IMG/VR virus record: IMGVR_UViG_3300045988_077615
Strand: one strand, 5' to 3'
DNA: 31,461 bases
Source: a virus
Shown here piece by piece: positions 669-31,461 of this stretch. The notes under the pieces were generated by a model. It worked only from the letters and a program-made list of their open reading frames with translations, was not told where the DNA came from and did no database searches. A program made the translations under genes and the position numbers. Every line of letters begins with the position of its first letter. Within the stretch, counting starts at the first letter, position 1.

Positions 669-1376
669 ATGAAAGACTACTTGAAAAAGAAACCACTGTA
701 TGACTACAGGTCGTACGGTGGGTGGGGTATACAGCGTCCTGAGCACGGTACTCTAGGTCGCTTCGACCCGGCTATGACTAAGCTACTTCCGGATGGCCGT
801 ACGTTCGAACTCAAGATGCAGTTCGACAGGCCAGCCTACTTGATGTATGTCGAGGCAGGGGCCACACACGAGAAAGCGCTGCACAACTCCCTGAGGTGTG
901 GCTCATGGGCAAGCCTATACAACGTCCAGGGGGAGGGCTACTGGTCCATGTGGGTGAAGAACCCACCCTCCTGGACGACTGAAATGGTAGCTATGCTGTG
1001 GCCTGAGGAAGACTCCCGCTGGCCCGAGGGCGAGATAAACTTCATGGAGACCCAGTCTGACAAGACCAAGACTCAGCTGAATCTCCACTGGCCCTCGCCT
1101 AAGGACCGCTCTCCACAGCACTGGCCTGTGACGATCGACCTCGATACACGACAGTGGCACAAGTACGGGGTACGTATCTACTCTGATTGCGTACGGTGGT
1201 TTGTAGACGACAAGATGGTGAGGCACCTAGACACAGAGTTCGCACCTTACAACACCAAGCTGCACTTCGCTGTGCAGTGTGGGGTGAATCAAAACTTCGG
1301 GGTGATGTGGCACAAGGACATCGCCTGGGAAGAGAATATGTACATCATCCCTGAGAGAGCCCCAGGGATACTGTAG
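669..1376 (+). CDS. GH16-like (concanavalin-A-like glucanase fold) glycoside hydrolase, probable second lysis enzyme
   Basis: WSMWV...WPEGEINFME...HW...WHKYGVRIYSDCVRWFVDDKMV matches the GH16 signature (WPxxGEIDxxE, HxYxxxW...YVDG). The catalytic motif here reads E-I-N-F-M-E. ATG at 669. Confidence 0.6.
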   Translation: MKDYLKKKPLYDYRSYGGWGIQRPEHGTLGRFDPAMTKLLPDGRTFELKMQFDRPAYLMYVEAGATHEKALHNSLRCGSWASLYNVQGEGYWSMWVKNPPSWTTEMVAMLWPEEDSRWPEGEINFMETQSDKTKTQLNLHWPSPKDRSPQHWPVTIDLDTRQWHKYGVRIYSDCVRWFVDDKMVRHLDTEFAPYNTKLHFAVQCGVNQNFGVMWHKDIAWEENMYIIPERAPGIL

Positions 1377-9379: not shown

Positions 9380-10724
9380 AAGTCTCTCCTAGAAGATAGT
9401 TGCGTGTATTCAGCATGATCTCTTTCCTGAACTCTGTGGCTTCCTGTAGGGAGGCCCACAGGGAGTCCTCTACAGTGTCCTGGGTCACCATCACGATGAC
9501 CTTCGGATCAGCCGCTAAGGCTACTCTATCAGACATCTGACGGTAGGTCAACGCCGAGGTAGGTAGCCCGTACCACACCAGCACTTCGGCCTCCCTCATG
9601 TCCACAGCAGTAGCAGCGACCTGAGGGTTGACTACCAGCACACCGTCCTTAGAAGCTTTCCAGGCGTCCAAGACCGATGTCTTGTCCTTGACCTTACCGT
9701 CCAGCCTGTATGTGTGGTCCAGGTGACACTCTATAGCTGTAAGGGAGTCCAGTAGCTCGCTGGCTACCACTATACGCCCTCTGTAGGCCTCCCTGAGGGC
9801 ATCCAGGGCCACAAGCTTATGCCCGCTGTACACTAGCCTGCCCTCACCTGTAGAGAGTCCCTCAGCGAGACGTCGGCACTTAGAGAACAGTGCTAGTACG
9901 CTATCGGCTCCTGTCTCGCCCTGAGCCTCCAGGACGTCTAGCTCATCCCTGACCATAGCCTGGTAGATGGACTTGCGAGACTCGTCTAGGAATACAGGCA
10001 CTGCCTCTTCATCAATAGCCTTGGTACCGATGGCGTCCTCACGGCTAATACTTATGGAATGCGCTTTAATAAGTGCCTGGTATTCCTCAGTATTTCTAGG
10101 CCCTAAATACTTAGGGAAGCCCCCAAAATTGGACCACTCGCCGAAGTACTCCCTAAACGACTTAGCAGAGGGGAATTCTTCCCTAATAGAAGGGTCAGAG
10201 AACACTAGCTGGGGATAAATCTCACCCACCATGTTGCGTTTACCCACAGGTGTGGCTGTCAGGCATACCCTATACCTAGCCGATTTAGCCATACCCACGA
10301 TACGCCTAGACCGTTTACTCGCAGGTGTCTTGATGAGGTGGGATTCATCCAGAACTATAGCTGAAGCATGGTATTCAGCACCCTTGAATAGTCCTTTAGG
10401 ATAACCCCTAGAGAACTTATCGTAGTTGATTAGCACGATCTTAGGCAGTGCTGTGGCCTCATAGGCCCCGTCATAGACAATATCCGCCTCAGGTCCCCAG
10501 TAATGCTGCTGTAGTTCCCTGACCCACACATCGACAGCAATTTTAGGGCAGACCACAACGATATACCTGACATCCCGGTTGTGCATAAGCCATGACAGCC
10601 AGTCGATGGTTGTCTTAGTCTTACCCGTACGTGTGTCCATAAGGAGCATACCGTGCTCTTTTTTAGCCAGCCACTTAACCGCGGCCAGCTGATAGTCTCG
10701 AGGTTTAGTGACTGGCTCAAACAT
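9360..10724 (-). CDS. SNF2/DEAD-like superfamily-2 helicase
   Basis: Motif I DTRTGKTKT, motif II VLDESH, and a C-terminal helicase domain (RQMSDRV). Confidence 0.8.
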   Translation of the reverse strand: MFEPVTKPRDYQLAAVKWLAKKEHGMLLMDTRTGKTKTTIDWLSWLMHNRDVRYIVVVCPKIAVDVWVRELQQHYWGPEADIVYDGAYEATALPKIVLINYDKFSRGYPKGLFKGAEYHASAIVLDESHLIKTPASKRSRRIVGMAKSARYRVCLTATPVGKRNMVGEIYPQLVFSDPSIREEFPSAKSFREYFGEWSNFGGFPKYLGPRNTEEYQALIKAHSISISREDAIGTKAIDEEAVPVFLDESRKSIYQAMVRDELDVLEAQGETGADSVLALFSKCRRLAEGLSTGEGRLVYSGHKLVALDALREAYRGRIVVASELLDSLTAIECHLDHTYRLDGKVKDKTSVLDAWKASKDGVLVVNPQVAATAVDMREAEVLVWYGLPTSALTYRQMSDRVALAADPKVIVMVTQDTVEDSLWASLQEATEFRKEIMLNTRNYLLGETYASESV

Positions 10725-10984
10725 TAGTTAATTGCTCCTTCAATCATCTTCTTGTACTGGAGTGTGGTCCCAGTACCCATCCTAGCAACCTCCACACCCT
10801 CGCGCAAGGCTATCACAGTTGGTACAGACATGATATTGAATTTACGCCCTAGGTCAGGATTGACCTCAACATCAACATACTCCCAACCAAGATAAGGGAA
10901 CTTTTGCATAGCCCTTTCAAAATTAGCCTTAGACTGCGGGCACTGTGAACACCACGGGGCACCAAGGAACAATAACTTCAACAT
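10724..10984 (-). CDS. Thioredoxin/glutaredoxin-fold protein
   Basis: WCSQC active-site motif, a cis-Pro VPT motif, 86 aa. Confidence 0.75.
   Translation of the reverse strand: MLKLLFLGAPWCSQCPQSKANFERAMQKFPYLGWEYVDVEVNPDLGRKFNIMSVPTVIALREGVEVARMGTGTTLQYKKMIEGAIN
10779..10807 (-). promoter_or_regulatory. Candidate internal promoter upstream of the SNF2 helicase
   Basis: On the - strand: TTGCGC (10802-10807), 17 nt spacer, TGC-TAGGAT (10779-10784). It lies inside the thioredoxin ORF, 55 nt before the helicase ATG. Confidence 0.4.
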
Positions 10985-11820
10985 TAGATTACTACCACCT
11001 TTGCTGAATAGATAGGCGCCTTATAGTCGACCGCCTTGAAACCCTTACCTTTGAAATTAAGTATACCTTGTTTGGCTGGAATAAACTCAACCTCACTCTC
11101 TACTCTAGCAGGTATTAGCATCCTATGCCAAACATCAAGATTCTGACAGTACACGTGGGCATTAGCTGTAGTGAACCTCAACTGCCCCGGACTAACCTCG
11201 TGCTCGTGCTTCCGCAGTGTATTAGTCATCAGGTGAATGAGCATCCACCCCTCAAGGGTGTCATAAGGTAGCCCACACACGATGTCTGTGGACCTGGCAA
11301 AGATGTCTAGGTTGACTCGACCTCCTACCACGTTGAACGCCCACACCACTGGGCACGGTGGGATACGCATAGACCCTATCTCGTAACCCTGCCAGGCAGT
11401 CCACAACGCTCGTTTAGTTGTAGGCTGGGCCACTAGACGGTCCACGACGTCCCGTACGGCGTCATAAGCCCCATCAGGACCTCCGTAGCGCCACTGGACG
11501 CCGTACATAGGCCCCAGCTCGTCTGTGGCCCATGGAGACCACATGCGCTCCACGTCGGGGGTGATCCTAGCACACCTGTCGTGCTGTGTGGCCCCTGACC
11601 CACTAAGCATCCAGTAGAGTTCTCGCTGAGCCATGTCCACAGACACCCTACGGGTCTGGGACAGTGGCGCATGTGTGTAGACCACACTCCATGACCCGTA
11701 GCACCAGTAGGGGTGATCCTGCCCTTCAGTGACTAGCTCAGCAGCTTGTCTAGACAAGTGGTATATGTTCTGGTCATACTCACACAGCACGGCGATAAGC
11801 CTCCGATGCGCACTTAACAA
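10984..11820 (-). CDS. Thymidylate-synthase-family pyrimidine C5 transferase with Asp at the specificity position (candidate dCMP methylase/hydroxymethylase)
   Basis: Collinear ThyA motifs: ELYWMLSG, LGPMYGVQWR, IPPCP (catalytic Cys), ARSTD, GLPYD (E. coli GLPFN), ANAHVY. Confidence 0.6.
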   Translation of the reverse strand: MLSAHRRLIAVLCEYDQNIYHLSRQAAELVTEGQDHPYWCYGSWSVVYTHAPLSQTRRVSVDMAQRELYWMLSGSGATQHDRCARITPDVERMWSPWATDELGPMYGVQWRYGGPDGAYDAVRDVVDRLVAQPTTKRALWTAWQGYEIGSMRIPPCPVVWAFNVVGGRVNLDIFARSTDIVCGLPYDTLEGWMLIHLMTNTLRKHEHEVSPGQLRFTTANAHVYCQNLDVWHRMLIPARVESEVEFIPAKQGILNFKGKGFKAVDYKAPIYSAKVVVI

Positions 11821-12535
11821 TTACGTAACCCGGTTCTTTAACCCATGAGCTACCATGTTTAGCCCAGTAGGTAAAGTCTCTAACCGCCTTATTGAAATTC
11901 TTAGCCAGGGTGTAATTAGTCACCCCATAAGAGACATCTGGACTTACATTATAGCCCATTCCTAGGTACTTATGAAAGGTCTCAAGAATAAACATACAGG
12001 CCTTTTTATTAAGGTCCCTATACCTGATTTCTCCCCAATTAAGCACTTCCATGCATTGTGGATACCAGTCACCGAAATTAAGGTCATTATAGTGCCTTGC
12101 ACCGTACTCTGGACGAGATCTAATGACCTCAACACCGGCATTACGAAGTACAGTTATACCCTGTTTATGCTCTCGCCAGTCTGGTGTTTTCAGAGCTGGA
12201 TCGAGCCACGGCCTGTCATACTCCAGAGACCCCCTGAACCCCGCCAGAAGCAGCGCTCTAGCGCACGGTGCGCAAGGCTCATAGGTCATAGCTATGTGGC
12301 CCTCCCTAAGATGATAGGGCAGCTCCATAAGCTGTTGTGAGGCCCACACCTCGGCATGAATGTACTCAAGGCACTGGCCGTCAGATGCAACGTCGTGGCA
12401 TTTAGGGCCAAGCTCAACGTTATGTGTGGATACCTGGTAATCCCCAGAGGTGTTTACGAAATAGCAACCTACCTTGCATTCAGGGTGGGAGGATTGCTGG
12501 GCAATCTCATAGGCTAGCTCAATCTCATTGATCAT
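11780..12535 (-). CDS. dCMP deaminase with ~120-aa C-terminal extension
   Basis: Zinc motifs HAE...PCAPC. Start placed at the ATG at 12535 (SD AGGAG 5 nt upstream) rather than the track's 12562. Confidence 0.75.
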   Translation of the reverse strand: MINEIELAYEIAQQSSHPECKVGCYFVNTSGDYQVSTHNVELGPKCHDVASDGQCLEYIHAEVWASQQLMELPYHLREGHIAMTYEPCAPCARALLLAGFRGSLEYDRPWLDPALKTPDWREHKQGITVLRNAGVEVIRSRPEYGARHYNDLNFGDWYPQCMEVLNWGEIRYRDLNKKACMFILETFHKYLGMGYNVSPDVSYGVTNYTLAKNFNKAVRDFTYWAKHGSSWVKEPGYVIVKCASEAYRRAV

Positions 12536-12818
12536 TATAGCTCCTAACAATAACCCGATCAAACTGCGGAAAAGTCTTCAGAATAGCTTCACAAGTAGGG
12601 CATACGTAGTTAATTATGTACGCAATGCCCGGGCGTGACCCCCCAACCTCATTTAGCAGCCTCATTACTGGGTGGATATAAGCCCCTCCGGGCTCCGGGT
12701 AATACTTACCTGGCACCCACCAGATACCGTCAGGGCTAGAGAAGACCACAGACGACATACATCCTCGCTCGGGCTTAATGTTCTGGATCATACGAGGGAT
12801 ATCCTTGAACTCATACAT
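12525..12818 (-). CDS. Hypothetical protein (97 aa), possible degenerate deaminase-like fold
   Basis: ORF track. IHPVMR...CPTCEAIL...RVIV loosely resembles H(A)E...PCxxC but lacks the catalytic Glu. Confidence 0.5.
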   Translation of the reverse strand: MYEFKDIPRMIQNIKPERGCMSSVVFSSPDGIWWVPGKYYPEPGGAYIHPVMRLLNEVGGSRPGIAYIINYVCPTCEAILKTFPQFDRVIVRSYNDQ

Positions 12819-13110: not shown

Positions 13111-13530
13111 TTAGTTAACCCACCCCGACTCATGCAGGATCAGCTCGACCTCCGACGGGTCAATCAGGTCATCCCGCATGCGTGCAGTGAGATACGCGAT
13201 AGCGAATAGAGCGGGCTCACACCTCATAGCCTTAGCAATACCCTCTAGGCCCTTACCGTAGCTGCGCACACGGGACAATACACGTCCCCATGAGGCCTTG
13301 CTGCCAATAGTGAGCTTCTTACAGAGCTGGCCTGCCTCAGCTGACACCCCAATAGCGAATGTCCACGGTGAGTGAGCTATAGCTACCCACCACTCCAAGG
13401 CGTCTCTGAGTTCATCAGGGTCCTCTGACCTTAATGCTGCCACAAGGACCTCAGTAAGGCCCGCCAAATCAGTCTCAAATTGCGTGGTCATATACAATGT
13501 GGTATGTATGTCTTGCCGTGAAACATTCAT
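13111..13530 (-). CDS. Hypothetical early protein (139 aa), paralog of 14186..14566
   Basis: Shares the core L..A.R..D...L..AL.....A.SPW.FA..V.A..G...K..T.G..A.W.RV with the 126-aa ORF (~40% identity by eye over ~60 aa). Confidence 0.65.
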   Translation of the reverse strand: MNVSRQDIHTTLYMTTQFETDLAGLTEVLVAALRSEDPDELRDALEWWVAIAHSPWTFAIGVSAEAGQLCKKLTIGSKASWGRVLSRVRSYGKGLEGIAKAMRCEPALFAIAYLTARMRDDLIDPSEVELILHESGWVN

Positions 13531-13610: not shown

Positions 13611-14009
13611 TCAGCGATTATTCTCGAGCCATTCCTCAGCCTTTTCCACAAGCTGGTCGTAGGTCAGCGTGTAGTCCTCATCGACCAGGTCGATCAGGTA
13701 GCTGATCAGCTCGAACACGGGGGTGTCCTCTATGGCCTCAGCGGTCTCAGGCAGGACCAGGACCTCCCCGAACTCCCAGTCGAGGGGGGTGTCCTCTGAC
13801 TGAGGGCCCTCCACACGCACCAGCACGGGATCAGTAGCGCCTACTGCGTGTGTGGCCCAGTACGCAGCCAGCTCCTCGATGGTCTTGCATCCACTCACAC
13901 CGTGCCTAACCTTGCTCTCGTCCTCGTCTGATGGCCAGCTGTACTGGGTCTCAGGGTCGAGCAGGTACTCAACCCCGCGCTTCCTGTCCTGGATCCTGTA
14001 GGCGATCAT
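13611..14009 (-). CDS. Hypothetical highly acidic early protein (132 aa)
   Basis: ORF track. Has its own promoter and leader. Very D/E-rich. Confidence 0.65.
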   Translation of the reverse strand: MIAYRIQDRKRGVEYLLDPETQYSWPSDEDESKVRHGVSGCKTIEELAAYWATHAVGATDPVLVRVEGPQSEDTPLDWEFGEVLVLPETAEAIEDTPVFELISYLIDLVDEDYTLTYDQLVEKAEEWLENNR

Positions 14010-14071
14010 GTGTTGTCCTTCCTGGGTTGTTCTGATGTGTCTAGACTAGCACACCTCCCCGCGATGTGCAA
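14010..14071 (-). promoter_or_regulatory. Early promoter (extended -10) plus conserved CA-rich leader
   Basis: On the - strand: GGGGTTGCAC (-35 at 14066-14071), 17 nt spacer, GTGTGC-TAGTCT (14043-14048), then leader ACATCAGAACAAC..GGAAGG. Confidence 0.65.
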
Positions 14072-14104
14072 CCCCTCAGTTTCTCGAATCTGACGGCCTA
14101 GCAG

Positions 14105-14176
14105 CACCTGACCCTACCAAGGATACCCCCCAGGCCTTTTGAGGCCGTTTAGGCGCATTCCAAGCAGGGTCAGGTG
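14105..14176. repeat. 11-bp inverted repeat CACCTGACCCT / AGGGTCAGGTG enclosing a small GGCC..GGCC hairpin
   Basis: 14105-14115 is the reverse complement of 14166-14176. Located in the intergenic region downstream of 14186..14566. Confidence 0.5.
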
Positions 14177-14185
14177 TGCTCTAGG

Positions 14186-14566
14186 TCAGGACCACCAACA
14201 GATGGCGACCGGAATGGCGTTGACTGCGTCAGGGTGCTGGCCACTCTTGTGCACCAGGCAGCACATGAGGGCGAGTGTGGCTAGGGCCTCGCCCTCGTGG
14301 CGGGCTGCCCACCCTGGGACCCGGGACCACGCTGCTCTGGTCCCGACCGTGTGGCGCTTGATCGTGGGACCACAGATGGCGTGGACAGCTAGTGCGAACG
14401 CCCAGGGGGACAAGGCTACATCGGACAGGGCCTTGAGTGCTGACTTGAGCGCAGCGATGTCGTCTGCCCGGATAGCCTCCAGGAGGTCACCTGCCAGGAC
14501 ACGCTCGTAGCCGGTCTCCCGTGTGGTCGCGTTGATGGTTGCAAGGATCTCTCGTCTCGTGATCAT
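14186..14566 (-). CDS. Hypothetical early protein (126 aa), GC-rich paralog of 13111..13530, leaderless
   Basis: Paralogy as described for 13111..13530. The ATG is 6 nt downstream of TGTGCTAGGGT. Clearly higher GC by eye than the genome average. Confidence 0.6.
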   Translation of the reverse strand: MITRREILATINATTRETGYERVLAGDLLEAIRADDIAALKSALKALSDVALSPWAFALAVHAICGPTIKRHTVGTRAAWSRVPGWAARHEGEALATLALMCCLVHKSGQHPDAVNAIPVAICWWS

Positions 14567-14601
14567 GGATCCACCCTAGCACAGGACCACACACCTGACA
14601 A
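14567..14601 (-). promoter_or_regulatory. Leftward early promoter (extended -10), leaderless
   Basis: On the - strand: TTGTCA (14596-14601), 17 nt spacer containing GGTGTGTGGTCC, TGTGC-TAGGGT (14573-14578), then 6 nt to the ATG at 14566. Confidence 0.6.
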
Positions 14602-14647
14602 GTCCCGCCCTGTGGTTCCCTCCTCCCCCAGACCCCCTCCTACCCTC

Positions 14648-14766
14648 CGCGTAGCGCTCAGGCGTGGCGCGTGCAGGTGGCGCGCTGGCGTATGTGGCGG
14701 GTATGTGGCGCGGGCGCGTAGCACGCGCGCGTAGCGCTACGCGTGGCGTGACGCGCGCGCGTACGA
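14648..14766. repeat. GC-rich iteron/palindrome cluster
   Basis: GTGGCG(C/G/T)G at 14664, 14677, 14694, 14705 and 14743. Tandem GTATGTGGCG at 14690 and 14701 (11-bp period). CGCGTAGC repeated three times. 16-bp perfect palindrome CGCGTAGCGCTACGCG at 14728-14743. Confidence 0.7.
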
Positions 14767-14816
14767 GGCTGTCGGCCCTTCCCCTCCTTCCCCCCAAACC
14801 CCCCTATCCACCCTAA

Positions 14817-14868
14817 CCCCTGAGGGTCTCTCTCTGGCGTTTACGCCTGAGAGAGAGACCCTCAGGGG
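14817..14868. repeat. Long hairpin / inverted repeat (19-bp outer stem, 2-nt bulge, GGCG-TTTA-CGCC tip)
   Basis: 14817-14835 pairs perfectly with 14850-14868. The inner tip is GGCGTTTACGCC (14836-14847). Confidence 0.85.
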
Positions 14869-14876
14869 GAGTTAGT

Positions 14877-14887
14877 TATATATATAT
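14877..14887. repeat. (TA)n tract inside an otherwise very GC-rich region (possible DNA-unwinding element)
   Basis: TATATATATAT flanked by T-rich pyrimidine runs (TTTCTTCTCTTT, TTTCTCTTCTTT). Confidence 0.5.
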
Positions 14888-15004
14888 TTCTTCTCTTTAG
14901 AGGGGGTATGGGGGAGACCTTTCTCTTCTTTGCCGGTGTGTGGCCTCGGGGATCCTCCTCGGTCGGGCCGTCTCGCGGCCCTCCCCGCACGGGGCACTGG
15001 GCCT

Positions 15005-15038
15005 CCCGGGGCCCCAGGCGTAAACGCCGGGCCCCGGG
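15005..15038. repeat. Imperfect GC hairpin whose tip GGCGTAAACGCC is the reverse complement of the 14836-14847 tip
   Basis: 15017-15028 GGCGTAAACGCC. Flanking CCCGGGGCCCC / GGGCCCCGGG arms pair with two bulges. Confidence 0.55.
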
Positions 15039-15284
15039 GCCCAGCCCCGTGCCAGGGCACGACGGGGACGATGGGGGAGGAAGCTGAGCTGATGAAGCTG
15101 AGGCTCGCCGTCTCGCGGCTCGCCAGGGGGTGTGTGGTCTAGCTCAGGGTGGCAGCAACGGCTGGAATGCCCCTGAGAGACCGGAGGATGGATTCTGAGG
15201 GCCTAACAGGGCTGGGGTGGCACTGGAGTACCCCCAGACGATTTGAGGCCGTCTATGGCCCATACATCCAGCTCTCAGGAGGTG

Positions 15285-15320
15285 TTGCGGAGTGGCGGGG
15301 ATATGTGCTAGGCTGAGGGC
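15285..15320 (+). promoter_or_regulatory. Rightward promoter (extended -10), leaderless start of 15321..15608
   Basis: TTGCGG (15285-15290), 18 nt spacer, TGTGC-TAGGCT (15309-15314), then 6 nt to the ATG at 15321. Confidence 0.55.
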
Positions 15321-15608
15321 ATGGAGTTTCCACGAGAGATCATTAAGCGAGTAGTTGAGATTCCGGGGTGGGGTGATGTACCCGCACTGCCGAGCGAGCA
15401 GAGGCTGGAGGAGGCTGGCATGGTCCACGAGGACCAGACCAGGACCACACGCCTGAGGTACCGGGCGCGGCTTGCGGACTATCCGGTGGAGACGTACGAG
15501 GCTAGGGCGATCCAGCAGGCGGTGCCGACGTACGGCACACGTGTGGTCCAGCTGGAGAGTGTGATCAAGCTTGGGGTGATCTGGGTGGAGGTGACCGTGG
15601 CATGGTGA
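15321..15608 (+). CDS. Hypothetical protein (95 aa), leaderless
   Basis: ORF track. High third-position GC and plausible E/R-rich composition. Promoter spacing identical to the two other leaderless genes. Confidence 0.55.
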   Translation: MEFPREIIKRVVEIPGWGDVPALPSEQRLEEAGMVHEDQTRTTRLRYRARLADYPVETYEARAIQQAVPTYGTRVVQLESVIKLGVIWVEVTVAW

Positions 15609-15620
15609 CGGCGTGTCGAG

Positions 15621-15649
15621 TTGACATGGTAGGGGGTACCTGCTAGGGT
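15621..15649 (+). promoter_or_regulatory. Candidate late-operon promoter
   Basis: Consensus TTGACA (15621-15626), 17 nt spacer, TGC-TAGGGT (15644-15649). Located immediately after the stop of 15321..15608. Confidence 0.6.
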
Positions 15650-15650
15650 G

Positions 15651-15790
15651 TATACCAGGGTAGAAGATATACCCTGGGTACTGGTTTGGAGTACCCCCTG
15701 GATTGGAACCCCAGGGGGTATTTGGGTAAGGTACCCCAGGGGGTGCAGGAATAGCCCCCTGGGGTATACCCCGGTAAGTACCCCCTAGGT
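15651..15790. repeat. Array of CCWGG-centred GC palindromes (TACCCC-W-GGGGTA family) in the late-operon leader
   Basis: Copies centred near 15657, 15675, 15697, 15714, 15738, 15760 and 15784. Perfect inverted repeats: TACCCCCTGG (15692-15701) / CCAGGGGGTA (15711-15720), and TACCCCAGGGGG (15732-15743) / CCCCCTGGGGTA (15755-15766). Confidence 0.8.
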
Positions 15791-15811
15791 AACCCGGATA
15801 GGTCTTGTAAG

Positions 15812-16195
15812 ATGCCGTATTCAGCCCCCGAGCGATGCTGGTGCGGAGAACTAGGTTTGCCGGGCACAGCGTTGTGCCTGGCCCACACACCGACAAAGTC
15901 CGGTTGGGAATTGCGACCAACTGCTTGGAAGAATGTCGACGGAAAGACTTATCGTAAATGGAAGAAACTTCGGAACAGATTCATTAAAGAGAATCCTTTC
16001 TGTAATCTGTGCGGAATGATTGCAACAGAAGTAGATCATATTCAAGGAATTAAAGCAATTGAGAATGAATTAACAATTCTTGACGAAAATCAATTGCAAT
16101 CATTATGCCATGAATGTCACGCAGCTAAAACAAGGGAAGCGTCGAGAAAATCACGAAATTCAATTAAAAAGCTGCGCCGGGGTAACTCTCCGTGA
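15812..16195 (+). CDS. HNH endonuclease (terminase-associated type)
   Basis: N-terminal Cys/His cluster (CWC...C.AH), then NPFCNLCG...EVDHI...LCHECHAAKT (HNH core). Immediately upstream of TerS/TerL. Confidence 0.85.
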   Translation: MPYSAPERCWCGELGLPGTALCLAHTPTKSGWELRPTAWKNVDGKTYRKWKKLRNRFIKENPFCNLCGMIATEVDHIQGIKAIENELTILDENQLQSLCHECHAAKTREASRKSRNSIKKLRRGNSP

Positions 16196-16218
16196 AATAC
16201 AGGTTAGTTGATCGTTAA

Positions 16219-16235
16219 AGTGAACAGTGTTCACT
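16219..16235. repeat. 17-bp palindrome AGTGAACA-G-TGTTCACT between HNH and TerS (candidate cos/terminase site)
   Basis: Read directly from the sequence. It is the only symmetric element in the 61-nt HNH-TerS spacer. Confidence 0.5.
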
Positions 16236-16256
16236 AAGATTTGAGGAGTGCGTAAT

Positions 16257-16631
16257 ATGACTGAAGATGAGCGTTTTAGTGAGATTCCTCCTGGAATCGC
16301 CAATAACGAGGTTTTGCGAGGCGTGTGGTCCGAGCTTGTGGGTATGATGCCCAAGGAAGTCCTCGATAACCTTGATGAGATGGACGGCCTGTTTATTGAG
16401 GCTATGTGTAGGCATTACGCTATTGCACGAAAAGCCTCGAATGAGGTTATTTCAGCTGATTCTGTGTTGGTTACTGATAACCCTAATCACCGCATGCAAA
16501 AGCACCCTGCTGAGGTTATTTTCCGGTCACAATCTCAGGCATTCCTCGCTTATATGAAAGAGGCTGGATGGACGCCTAAAGCAAGGAATTCGGGTAAGAA
16601 TAAAGACACTGATAACCCATTCCTTATGTGA
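16257..16631 (+). CDS. Terminase small subunit (P27-like)
   Basis: 124 aa, directly upstream of TerL. Start set at the ATG at 16257 (SD GAGGAG 8 nt upstream) instead of the track's GTG at 16248. Confidence 0.65.
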   Translation: MTEDERFSEIPPGIANNEVLRGVWSELVGMMPKEVLDNLDEMDGLFIEAMCRHYAIARKASNEVISADSVLVTDNPNHRMQKHPAEVIFRSQSQAFLAYMKEAGWTPKARNSGKNKDTDNPFLM

Positions 16632-16641
16632 ATAGAATACA

Positions 16642-18315
16642 ATGAATAATGTAATTCCTAGTGAAATTAAAGATTATTTAGTCAGTAGGAAGCTAGACAT
16701 ACCTGAAAGAGGGCCACACCTCAAGTGCCCTGATCCTGGAGGTGTGGTCCACGGTATGCAAGTGCGATTTAACCCGAAGAGCGTAGATCATGCTCTTCGG
16801 GTTATTTCTGCTTTAAGACATACTAAAGGCCGTTGGGCGGGTAAGCCCCTTAAGCTAACTAATGTCCAGATAGCCTACATTGTGGCCCCCCTGTTTGGCT
16901 GGCAGGTGTATGATGATTCCCTTGATAGGTGGCTAAGGCTATACAGGGACGCATACATTGAGATGCCCCGTAAAGGAGCTAAGTCAACTCTGGCATCAGC
17001 ACTAGCTATGGTCCTCGCTTTCGGTGATCATGAGGGAGGCGCTGAGGTTATTATTGGTGCAGCGTCTAGAGATCAAGCAGGGGCATGTTTCACACCGCTT
17101 AAGCAACTTGTCGACAATAGCCCACTATTGAAGCAGGCCGGCATCAGATCACTGCATAACTCGATCAAGCAGGATAGGACAAGCTCTGTAATCAAGGTTG
17201 TCTCTAGCAAGGGTGACCTGGCGCACGGTGCCAACCTCCACGGGGCTATCTGTGATGAGCTTCACGTGCATAAGTCTCTGTCCCTGCTGGAGGCTATGGA
17301 GACAGGTACTGGTGCTCGTGAGCAGCCCCTGACGATGGTGATCACCACAGCTGATGACGGCAGTGTGGGCACGCCGTACGACCAGCGCAGGGAGCTGGTG
17401 GACAACATATGTAAGGGGGCTGTAGAAGCCCCTAGGTCGTTCTGTGTGGTGTGGTCTGCTGACCCTGAAGATGACCCCTGGTCAGAAGAGACGTGGGCTA
17501 AGGCTAACCCGCTGTACCCCGTAACTCCGTCAAGAGCATTCATGCAATCTGCTGCTGACAAGGCTAAGACTGACCCTGTAGCTAAGGCCAGCTTCCTTAG
17601 GCTGCATCTAGGCATCAGGGGCAGGCTGGATGAGTCGTGGATCAGCAGGTCTGACTGGATGAAGGGGGCTGTGGCTCAGCTGGACATTGAGGGCAGGCAG
17701 TGCTATGGCGGCCTGGACCTTGCAGCAGTATCTGACCTCACAGCGCTGGTGTGGTTGTTCCCAGCAGAGGACGGTACATACCAGATTCTGCCTCGCTTCT
17801 TCTTGCCTGAGGCTGCGCTAGCTGAACTGGACAGGGCCACATACAGGAATGCGTCTGTGTGGGCTAATAGAGGGCTAATTAAGTTGACTCCAGGTAATGT
17901 CACTGATTATGATTTTGTTAAAGCTCAGATTGATGAGGACGCTAAGCATTACGATGTTCAGTGCATAGGGTTCGATCCATGGAATGCTACTCAGGTATCT
18001 AATGACCTTCAAGCTGATGGGTACAGACTTGAGAAAGTCCGTCAGGGGTTTGTCTCTATGTCAGGCCCTATGAAAGAGATTCAGAGACTGGTTATGCAGG
18101 GGGGTGCTATTAAGCATGACGGTAACCCTCTGATGGCGTGGCAGATAGATAATATTCGTCCTGCTATGGACCCTGCTGGTAACATTAAACCTGCTAAGCA
18201 GAAGAAGCGGGATAAGATCGACGGCGTTGCTGCACTAGTCACAGCAATGAATGTATGGCAATTCCACAAAACAAAAGTCTCGGCTTACGGCGTGTCGGGC
18301 CTGGAATCTGTTTGA
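16642..18315 (+). CDS. Terminase large subunit
   Basis: 557 aa. Walker A-like PRKGAKST, Walker B-like AICDELH, and a C-terminal nuclease-like domain. Position fits. Confidence 0.85.
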   Translation: MNNVIPSEIKDYLVSRKLDIPERGPHLKCPDPGGVVHGMQVRFNPKSVDHALRVISALRHTKGRWAGKPLKLTNVQIAYIVAPLFGWQVYDDSLDRWLRLYRDAYIEMPRKGAKSTLASALAMVLAFGDHEGGAEVIIGAASRDQAGACFTPLKQLVDNSPLLKQAGIRSLHNSIKQDRTSSVIKVVSSKGDLAHGANLHGAICDELHVHKSLSLLEAMETGTGAREQPLTMVITTADDGSVGTPYDQRRELVDNICKGAVEAPRSFCVVWSADPEDDPWSEETWAKANPLYPVTPSRAFMQSAADKAKTDPVAKASFLRLHLGIRGRLDESWISRSDWMKGAVAQLDIEGRQCYGGLDLAAVSDLTALVWLFPAEDGTYQILPRFFLPEAALAELDRATYRNASVWANRGLIKLTPGNVTDYDFVKAQIDEDAKHYDVQCIGFDPWNATQVSNDLQADGYRLEKVRQGFVSMSGPMKEIQRLVMQGGAIKHDGNPLMAWQIDNIRPAMDPAGNIKPAKQKKRDKIDGVAALVTAMNVWQFHKTKVSAYGVSGLESV

Positions 18316-31163: not shown

Positions 31164-31461
31164 ATGGGATACGTGTCTGTGGGCCCTAAATACAATGGGC
31201 AGGAAGCCTACGCTGCTGAGATTCCAGCTAAGTGGTACAAGCTATTCAAGCGCTATATGGCTAAGTATCACCCGGATATCTCGATTATCCTGATCCAGGC
31301 TAAGGGAGGTGCAGCTGCGAGTGCAGGAACACACAGCGATGGCTGGGCGTTCGACTTCCAGAACTGGCACCTGACGTCTAAGCAGAACGAGATTCTGGTA
31401 GCTGAGTCACGTAGGTTCGGAGGTGTGGCTTGGGCTAGGTATAGGAGTCAGGGTTTCGAAC
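31164..31461 (+). CDS. Endolysin, 5' portion (continues at base 56 after removing the duplicated 55 bp)
   Basis: The ATG at 31164 follows the upstream TAA. The frame is open to the window end and in frame with 1..612. Contains GTHSDGWAFD (HxxGxAxD). Confidence 0.7.
   Translation, partial: MGYVSVGPKYNGQEAYAAEIPAKWYKLFKRYMAKYHPDISIILIQAKGGAAASAGTHSDGWAFDFQNWHLTSKQNEILVAESRRFGGVAWARYRSQGFE
31407..31461. repeat. 55-bp terminal duplication (identical to 1..55)
   Basis: Exact identity with bases 1-55. Confidence 0.95.

Follow-up and report, generated by a model that had tools for sequence, protein, structure and literature searches.

The closest described systems to the genes reported here are those of the phages Xp12 and PaMx74, in which a homolog of the thymidylate synthase (TS) ThyA, with Asp and Pro at the positions of Escherichia coli Asn177 and His147, directly adjoins a deaminase of the PF00383 type within a replication module that also holds a family A DNA polymerase (PolA) and a helicase. 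The first enzyme is predicted to convert deoxycytidine monophosphate (dCMP) to 5-methyl-dCMP, and the second to convert 5-methyldeoxycytidine (5-methyl-dC) nucleotides to thymidine (dT) nucleotides. The deamination branch of Xp12 was first reported in 1982, as 'a new thymidylate biosynthesis'. An engineered TS with the N229D/N177D exchange (Lactobacillus casei/E. coli numbering) becomes a dCMP methylase. In a metagenomic association study, positions 147 and 177 were the two at which ThyA homologs from phages with modified cytosine differed from the homologs of unmodified phages (PMC8670742). Among dCMP deaminases on contigs with modified cytosine, 70% were located within 3 kb of a ThyA homolog, versus 6% of those on unmodified contigs, and most of the neighbouring ThyA homologs carry the dCMP-specific residue (10.1101/2024.12.05.627091). 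Production of 5-methyl-dC in vivo was shown for the Xp12 enzyme and for five of seven N177D homologs from metagenomes; a preference for 5-methylcytosine (5mC) was found in many of the deaminases encoded nearby, and their proposed role is the supply of dT nucleotides from 5-methyl-dC nucleotides (10.1101/2024.12.05.627091). This 5mC-selective trait is polyphyletic, with no published sequence signature (10.1101/2024.12.05.627091).

The window analyzed here, i.e., the whole 31,461-nucleotide (nt) stretch of the IMG/VR virus record IMGVR_UViG_3300045988_077615, encodes a pair of this kind: a ThyA-family enzyme with a predicted switch from deoxyuridine monophosphate (dUMP) to dCMP, rather than an ordinary thymidylate synthase, and next to it a zinc deaminase. 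The window was compared with 33 related loci (L002, L004, L005 and L012-L041), which together with it form clade A, and the two genes are adjacent in 34 of 34 loci. An earlier preliminary description of the window had called the pathway incomplete or non-canonical; as the pairing has already been described for Xp12, PaMx74 and the 5mC-selective deaminases (mSCD), the window is a divergent, minimal example and not a new type of system. The pair is located as follows.

10984..11790, minus strand: ThyA-family gene, predicted dCMP C5-methyltransferase, 268 amino acids (aa), GTG start (PF00303 match, alignments with E. coli ThyA)
12101..12535, minus strand: N-terminal catalytic domain of the deaminase, approximately residues 1-145 of 251 aa (PF00383 match, motifs)
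11780..12100, minus strand: C-terminal domain of the deaminase, approximately residues 146-251, and stop codon (columns conserved within the clade)

The maximal open reading frame (ORF) at 10984..11820 matched PF00303 with an E-value of 1.6e-31 (110 bits, cut-off 24.3) and phrog_160 with 6e-38, which bears out its earlier assignment to the ThyA family. The start codon is the GTG at 11790, which is preceded by GGAGG and yields the 268 aa found in all homologs; the overlap with the deaminase gene is 11 nt, and not 41 nt as first stated. Asp in the motif GLPYD (codon 11260-11262) stood opposite E. coli Asn177 in three independent alignments: phmmer against thymidylate synthases in the PDB (E-value 1e-22 for E. 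coli TS), MAFFT with E. coli ThyA, PaMx74 ThyA and T4 gp42, and a MAFFT alignment of 90 sequences. E. coli GLPFN and PaMx74 GLPYD both align with this motif, and the numbering of the window enzyme coincides here with that of E. coli (Cys146, Asp169, Asp177). The codons of Cys146 (in RIPPCP) and Ile143 are at 11353-11355 and 11362-11364, respectively. The substitutions compared with ThyA of E. coli, each of the three as previously read from the sequence, are Asn177 to Asp, His147 to Pro and Gln165 to Ala, whereas Cys146, Glu58, Trp80, Trp83, Tyr94, Arg127, Arg166, Ser167, Asp169, His207 and Tyr209 are kept.

In the 90-sequence alignment, Asp177, Ile or Leu at 143, Pro or Thr at 147 and Ala165 were present in 34 of 34 clade genomes. 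Among the other 46 viral ThyA homologs of the same scan, 40 had Asn177 and His147, and 39 of these also Gln165. This invariance within the clade, set against Asn177/His147 in most other viral homologs, excludes a chance origin of the pattern. The remaining six homologs (L065, L067, L068, L069, L072 and L090) have Asp177 with His147 and Gln165 kept, as well as Asp83 and Tyr176; they form a separate group that is, by its residues, a different flavor of putatively dCMP-directed enzyme.

The profile match and the constellation of catalytic and folate-binding residues place the window enzyme in the thymidylate synthase superfamily. It differs from genuine thymidylate synthases in the replacement of Asn177, His147 and Gln165 and in its NCBIfam scores of 88-104 bits, which are below the equivalog cut-offs of 108-576 bits (TIGR03284, NF0024xx); the PaMx74 enzyme is likewise below these cut-offs. 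The best structural and sequence matches were to canonical ThyA (E. coli, L. casei), with E-values of 1e-22 to 1e-37 in alignments that spanned almost the entire protein and took in the C-terminus, whereas the three substitutions and a diverged N-terminal phosphate-binding region set the window enzyme apart. It thus carries naturally the substitution that was used to engineer TS into a dCMP methylase. A scan of 185,579 species genomes of bacteria and archaea did not recover the enzyme and gave only cellular ThyA at 31-32% identity.

Regarding the product, diagnostic positions with experimental backing have been published: Asp177 indicates dCMP as the substrate, a bulky hydrophobic residue 143 a methyl product, Asp or Glu at 143 a hydroxymethyl product, as in T4 gp42 and MilA, and Asn169 (D169N) the flavin-dependent 5-hydroxy-dCMP synthases (PMC13326640). 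The window enzyme has Ile143 (Leu in relatives) and the invariant Asp169, in agreement with the published correlates of a methyl product and at variance with a 5-hydroxy-dCMP synthase of the RB69 gp48 type. The family profile reached the last residue of solved TS structures with an E-value of about 1e-37, so that a TS-type C-terminal lid is present; T4 dCMP hydroxymethylase matched far more weakly, and BLAST of the window enzyme against gp42 gave 20% identity with an E-value of 0.014. The two enzymes share the ThyA fold, the catalytic Cys, the specificity Asp and the loss of His147 and Gln165, whereas gp42 has Asp143 and is without Trp83 and the TS C-terminal segment, in all three of which the window enzyme keeps the TS state. 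Because of the hydrophobic residue 143, the kept Asp169 and the TS-type C-terminus, the most likely product is 5-methyl-dCMP, formed by a TS-like reductive methylation, rather than 5-hydroxymethyl- or 5-hydroxy-dCMP. The initial proposal of a dCMP methyl- or hydroxymethyltransferase is therefore upheld for dCMP and narrowed to methyl transfer. A subsequent deamination of the modified dCMP had also been suggested; its branch to thymidine monophosphate (dTMP) agrees with the documented role in Xp12-type systems, whereas the one to 5-hydroxymethyl-dUMP is unlikely, given the favored methyl product.

The deaminase matched PF00383 with its residues 1-145 (E-value 3.9e-10, 40 bits, cut-off 25). Its zinc-binding and catalytic motifs, H60-A-E62 and P87-C88-x-x-C91, were invariant in 30 aligned homologs and intact in 33 loci, which substantiates the HAE...PCAPC pattern noted before; with both motifs in a deaminase fold, the protein belongs to the cytidine/dCMP deaminase superfamily. 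A Foldseek search with a low-confidence model gave as top matches the dCMP deaminases of Streptococcus mutans, cyanophage S-TIM5, human and T4 and the bifunctional enzyme of PBCV-1; the alignments mostly covered 140-170 columns of deaminase chains of approximately 135-165 residues and thus point to the deaminase core alone. With the dCMP deaminase of PaMx74 the protein shares 28% identity, and tblastn against cultured phages gave no match. In a profile search of 1.84 billion representative proteins, strong E-values were obtained for the protein's own clade only, and those of other deaminases were above 1e-6. Distant matches were essentially N-terminal; a few ran 6-9 residues past residue 145, the longest to residue 154. 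For the C-terminal domain (approximately 105 aa) no relatives outside the clade were found in Pfam, by Foldseek or in the same profile search. It is, as far as these comparisons reach, an orphan domain that is strongly conserved within the clade.

The pair is part of a block with the order 97-aa ORF - deaminase - ThyA(D177) - thioredoxin - SNF2, all on the minus strand, which was syntenic in the 34 clade loci wherever a locus reached far enough. The two flanking genes of the pair are located as follows.

10724..10984, minus strand: small thioredoxin-fold protein, 86 aa, WCSQC (PF00085)
12525..12818, minus strand: conserved 97-aa ORF (placed in the module by its conserved position only)

The 97-aa ORF overlaps the deaminase start by 11 nt, and the thioredoxin gene has a single base in common with each of its neighbors, in the stop codon of ThyA and in the start codon of the gene for the SNF2 helicase. 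The thioredoxin, correctly noted earlier as following ThyA, matched PF00085 (E-value 7e-8, 32.8 bits, cut-off 23.5) and has the WCxxC motif, kept as WCxQC in 30 loci; with 34 bits against TIGR01068 (cut-off 96.8) it is a divergent member of its family. No ribonucleotide reductase is encoded by the phage, and the most plausible role of the thioredoxin is to support that of the host, and hence the supply of deoxynucleoside triphosphates; a part in the methylation chemistry is improbable. A T7-style processivity factor was considered and is unlikely, as the PolA domain matches its Pfam model end to end with no large insertion. The 97-aa ORF was conserved in all clade loci examined, with the motif His49-Pro-Val ... 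Cys73-x-Thr-Cys76, and had no match in Pfam, PHROGs, NCBIfam or the PDB. Its motif spacing and predicted order of strands and helices recall a deaminase zinc site without the catalytic Glu. The inactive ADAT3 subunit of tRNA deaminase has such a Glu-less pattern; for the 97-aa ORF, no profile or structure search supports the likeness. When tried as a deaminase-like protein, it gave an hhalign probability of 1% against the deaminase, which leaves the resemblance at the level of motif speculation.

Compared with Xp12 and PaMx74, whose ThyA enzymes are 73% identical to each other, the gene order of the pair is reversed, with the deaminase upstream in the window. A nucleoside triphosphate (NTP) pyrophosphohydrolase/HAD gene on one side and a dihydrofolate reductase (DHFR) gene on the other are present in those phages and absent from the window, which has the thioredoxin and the 97-aa ORF in their place. 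The deaminase is 251 aa long with its orphan domain versus approximately 153-158 aa, and the genome 31 kb versus 58-64 kb. As in the MetaGPA mSCD (e.g., mSCD-B5), the PF00383 deaminase is encoded within 3 kb of a dCMP-specific ThyA homolog and near PolA. In contrast to these, close relatives of the window deaminase were detected only within its phage clade, so that it is unlikely to be among the enzymes tested, and no pyrophosphatase of the PRA-PH (phosphoribosyl-ATP pyrophosphohydrolase-like) type is near the pair. In contrast to T4, the genome is without a dCTPase, a gp1-type kinase and a glucosyltransferase.

The first 55 nt of the window are identical to positions 31407-31461. Given these identical termini and the length of the related contigs (30-32 kb), the window represents an entire circular genome, assembled at 31,406 bp, with a full inventory of genes. 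Domain scans with Pfam, PHROGs and NCBIfam covered most ORFs of at least 80 aa: the replication arm of the minus strand in its entirety and, in the structural module, the large genes. Among the scanned proteins no dUTPase fold and no glycosyltransferase were recognized, and the sole Walker A motif was that of a Sak4-like annealing protein. Two sister clades differ in this respect. In clade B (L001, L008 and L010) the order is ThyA (Asp177, Leu143), a small unknown protein, a dUTPase_2/MazG-like gene (in L001 and L008) and SNF2, and no recognizable deaminase was found in these three loci. In clade C (L043) it is a deaminase of normal size, a 139-aa protein, a DCD/dUTPase-fold protein, ThyA (Asp177), a 123-aa protein, SNF2, a P-loop protein (GPDGVGKTT) and PolA. 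Positions 1398-7403 of L043 (IMG/VR contig 3300045988_015813), with the Asp177 ThyA ortholog, the dCMP deaminase, the DCD/dUTPase-fold protein and the P-loop protein of 165 aa, look like a fuller set for cytosine replacement. The ThyA sequences of clades A, B and C were monophyletic in a neighbor-joining tree and the replication module is the same in all three, with the Asp177 ThyA as the constant element. The dUTPase-type neighbors in clades B and C would convert dCTP to dCMP, a classic means of feeding and enforcing the replacement of cytosine, and would fit a flow from dCTP via dCMP to 5-methyl-dCMP. Clade A is without a dCTPase-like gene; the genes it has with ThyA are those for the deaminase, the 97-aa protein and the thioredoxin. 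A 171-aa protein encoded between the SNF2 helicase gene and PolA was compared with the P-loop protein of clade C as a possible degenerate form and showed no similarity.

The pair probably represents a pyrimidine pathway of the Xp12 type that acts on free nucleotides before replication. In the proposed sequence, dCMP would be bound in place of dUMP, with Asp177 accepting the N3/N4 face of cytosine and with His147 and Gln165, which read uracil O4, replaced. Cys146 and 5,10-methylene-tetrahydrofolate would then add a one-carbon unit at C5, and this would be reduced to a methyl group to give 5-methyl-dCMP, since Ile143 keeps the active-site entrance hydrophobic and the TS C-terminal lid is kept; the dihydrofolate would be recycled by the host. 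Part of the pool of 5-methyl-dC mono- or triphosphate would be turned by the zinc deaminase into dTMP or thymidine triphosphate (dTTP), so that one methylase could feed both pyrimidines. Whatever 5-methyl-dCMP is phosphorylated by host kinases would be incorporated as 5mC by the phage PolA. With no dCTPase or kinase encoded, a partial replacement of cytosine is expected at most. The residue pattern, the intact motifs, the synteny and the set of genes are observed, whereas the substrate, the product, the specificity of the deaminase and what becomes of the product in DNA are inferred.

Several findings weigh against this interpretation. The ThyA-family enzyme is 24-25% identical to the Xp12 and PaMx74 enzymes in a trimmed alignment (34% over the best BLAST segment of 136 aa) and 27% identical to that of E. 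coli; it is thus no closer to the former than to canonical TS, shows no specific kinship with them and forms a separate lineage in the neighbor-joining tree, so that its assignment as a dCMP methylase depends on a few diagnostic positions. The N-terminal region of the phosphate-binding Arg21 does not align. The preliminary description had proposed profile and structure alignments as a check of the Asp placement; the profile alignments confirm it, but the AlphaFold2 models, built from shallow family alignments with pLDDT (predicted local distance difference test) values of 51 (ThyA) and 59 (deaminase), are too poor for active-site geometry, and the placement accordingly rests on the alignments of sequences and profiles. 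Divergence is extreme in the deaminase, with a best PDB match of E-value 6e-4 and scores below every NCBIfam cut-off, and it matches the mSCD class by genomic context only, a preference for 5mC over cytosine not being readable from sequence. Two of the seven N177D homologs assayed gave no 5-methyl-dC (10.1101/2024.12.05.627091). Regarding the rest of the pathway, an NTP pyrophosphatase/dCTPase, a deoxynucleoside monophosphate (dNMP) kinase and DHFR were not recognized among the scanned proteins, as had already been noted for the dCTPase, the kinase and a glycosyltransferase. A whole pathway would include a dCTP/dUTP pyrophosphatase that the phage encodes beside ThyA, as well as a kinase for 5-methyl-dCMP, and pyrophosphatase-type genes are present in PaMx74, Xp12 and the sister clades.

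The remaining point of this kind concerns the virion DNA. The clade strictly and specifically avoids the PstI-type site: CTGCAG was not observed in the window (6.8 expected) nor in the 299 kb pooled over the 34 clade A loci (53.1 expected), and every one-base variant occurred at a normal frequency. Presumably a restriction system specific for CTGCAG is present in the host and can attack the phage DNA. PstI fails to cut the DNA of Xp12 (5mC) and T4gt (5-hydroxymethylcytosine), so that with fully 5mC-containing DNA and a PstI-like host enzyme there would be nothing to select against the site. The absence of CTGCAG and the lack of a recognizable dCTPase or kinase make a complete replacement of cytosine by 5mC doubtful, whereas the published association data make modification likely for gene pairs of this kind. 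Partial incorporation of 5mC together with a substantial flux to thymidylate is the favored combination. As a separate observation, CpG was depleted in the window and the clade A loci (observed/expected 0.66-0.70), with a TpG/CpA excess of 1.14; the values for PaMx74 and T4 are approximately 1.0-1.1. Genome-wide 5mC alone would not produce such a CpG-specific deficit.

Two alternatives differ from the favored interpretation mainly in the fate of the methylated nucleotide. A full replacement as in Xp12, with nearly every virion cytosine present as 5mC and serving as an anti-restriction shield, and with the dCTPase and kinase contributed by the host or by unrecognized phage proteins, is rather unlikely. 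By arithmetic from the MetaGPA data, approximately 88 of approximately 96 pairs of a deaminase and an N177D ThyA are on modified contigs (10.1101/2024.12.05.627091), the dCTPase-like genes of clades B and C and the unassigned P-loop protein of clade C point in the same direction, and the missing activities could be concealed in the conserved ORFs of 171, 151, 139, 132 and 126 aa; against this, neither an NTP pyrophosphatase nor a dUTPase fold was recognized in the scanned genome, the Sak4-like protein has the sole Walker A motif, and the PstI resistance conferred by full 5mC should have removed the selection against CTGCAG. Thymidylate synthesis in reversed order as the sole function, in which dCMP would be methylated and then deaminated to dTMP, bypassing dUMP and dUTP, with little or no 5mC in the DNA, is likewise rather unlikely. 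It would account for a phage that encodes exactly these two activities and no recognized dCTPase, kinase or dUTPase, the avoided site shows that a type II enzyme still has access to the DNA, and the deamination branch is documented for Xp12; but a canonical ThyA with a dCMP deaminase would give the same end, the published association ties such pairs to modified DNA (10.1101/2024.12.05.627091), and in clade B the Asp177 ThyA ortholog occurs with a dUTPase_2-type gene and no recognizable deaminase, so that its product there cannot be a precursor of dTMP alone. An unlikely variant is a self-sufficient, dUMP-free thymidylate route with largely unmodified virion DNA, in which the orphan domain of the deaminase and the 97-aa protein, perhaps a catalytically dead deaminase-like partner, would provide channeling or specificity.

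The other alternatives concern the chemistry of one of the two enzymes. An ordinary dCMP deaminase, which like T4 cd would provide dUMP for the thymidylate synthase of the host independently of the methylase, is quite improbable: intact HAE and PCxxC motifs and a dCMP-deaminase-like fold agree with it and the specificity is not readable from sequence, yet neither a dUMP-using TS nor a dUTPase is encoded by the phage itself, the 11-nt overlap and the invariant adjacency couple the gene closely to the Asp177 ThyA, and most of the deaminases tested in such a context prefer 5mC (10.1101/2024.12.05.627091). Very unlikely is a dCMP hydroxymethylase like T4 gp42 or a 5-hydroxy-dCMP synthase, which would create a handle for hypermodification and leave the deaminase to give 5-hydroxymethyldeoxyuridine nucleotides. 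In its favor, Asp177 is also present in gp42 and two of the seven N177D enzymes gave no 5-methyl-dC in the published assay (10.1101/2024.12.05.627091), but residue 143 is Ile and not Asp or Glu, residue 169 is Asp and not Asn, the TS C-terminus absent from gp42 is kept, the similarity to gp42 is low, and no glycosyltransferase, kinase or other tailoring enzyme was found in the complete genome.

The genome is organized in two divergent arms, with the structural and lysis genes on the plus strand and the replication and nucleotide genes on the minus strand. The domain scans recovered a primase-helicase, an Hjc-like nuclease, the Sak4-like annealing protein, a PD-(D/E)XK exonuclease, PolA and SNF2, as well as packaging, head, tail and lysis genes. 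The preliminary description had seen the block as richer in A+T than its surroundings and as a horizontally acquired module. The G+C content was 46% for the thioredoxin gene and 48% each for the deaminase gene and the 97-aa ORF, in line with the first statement, whereas ThyA (53.9%) is at the genome mean (53.3%) and TerS is equally low (46%); with ThyA at the genome average and the block syntenic across the clade, a recent transfer is unsupported. The G+C content reached 63-65% at 14000-15500 and fell to 44% at 16000-17000, and the GC skew changed its sign near 15000; the region at approximately 14000-16200 is the junction at which the two gene arms diverge and hence probably has a regulatory or origin function. 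The long ORF at 15144-15920 had no family match.

Two minus-strand paralogs of 139 aa (13111-13530) and 126 aa (14186-14566) are located upstream of the nucleotide module and are 36% identical (E-value 1e-14). A relationship to the gene next after ThyA in clade B, with which they share the pentapeptide SPWT[FY], was considered; BLAST showed no homology. A 235-aa protein encoded just upstream of the holin gene (669-1376, plus strand) had a weak match to glycoside hydrolase family 16 (E-value 3.7e-7), and no conventional endolysin domain was recognized among the window ORFs scanned. The terminase resembles those of actinobacterial phages (46-48% identity), which is a weak hint at the host only. 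No nucleotide match to the window was found among cultured phages.

Four features keep this locus of interest: the lack of a dCTPase and of a kinase, the orphan domain of the deaminase, the avoidance of CTGCAG and the abundance of the clade in public metagenomes; its protein clusters hold hundreds of member sequences. Members appear in NCBI nr as 'MAG TPA ... [Caudoviricetes sp.]', and a human-associated origin may be guessed from the HMP-style IMG/VR sample numbers. Database labels for such genes are 'thymidylate synthase', 'deoxycytidylate deaminase' and 'hypothetical protein'; if the proposed pathway is correct, these labels would mislead inferences about metabolism and host interaction. 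The divergent deaminase could enlarge the pool of candidate 5mC-selective deaminases for methylome sequencing. If the dUMP-free route were true instead, the 'modification enzyme' would be a metabolic device and not an anti-restriction device. If the favored pathway is confirmed, a very common, small (31 kb) and uncultured phage lineage would make 5-methyl-dC nucleotides with fewer genes than any set yet seen for this pathway. This would show how little a route of the Xp12 type needs and would test the assumption of metagenomic association studies that such gene pairs invariably indicate modified DNA, against the possibility that they serve thymidylate supply alone.

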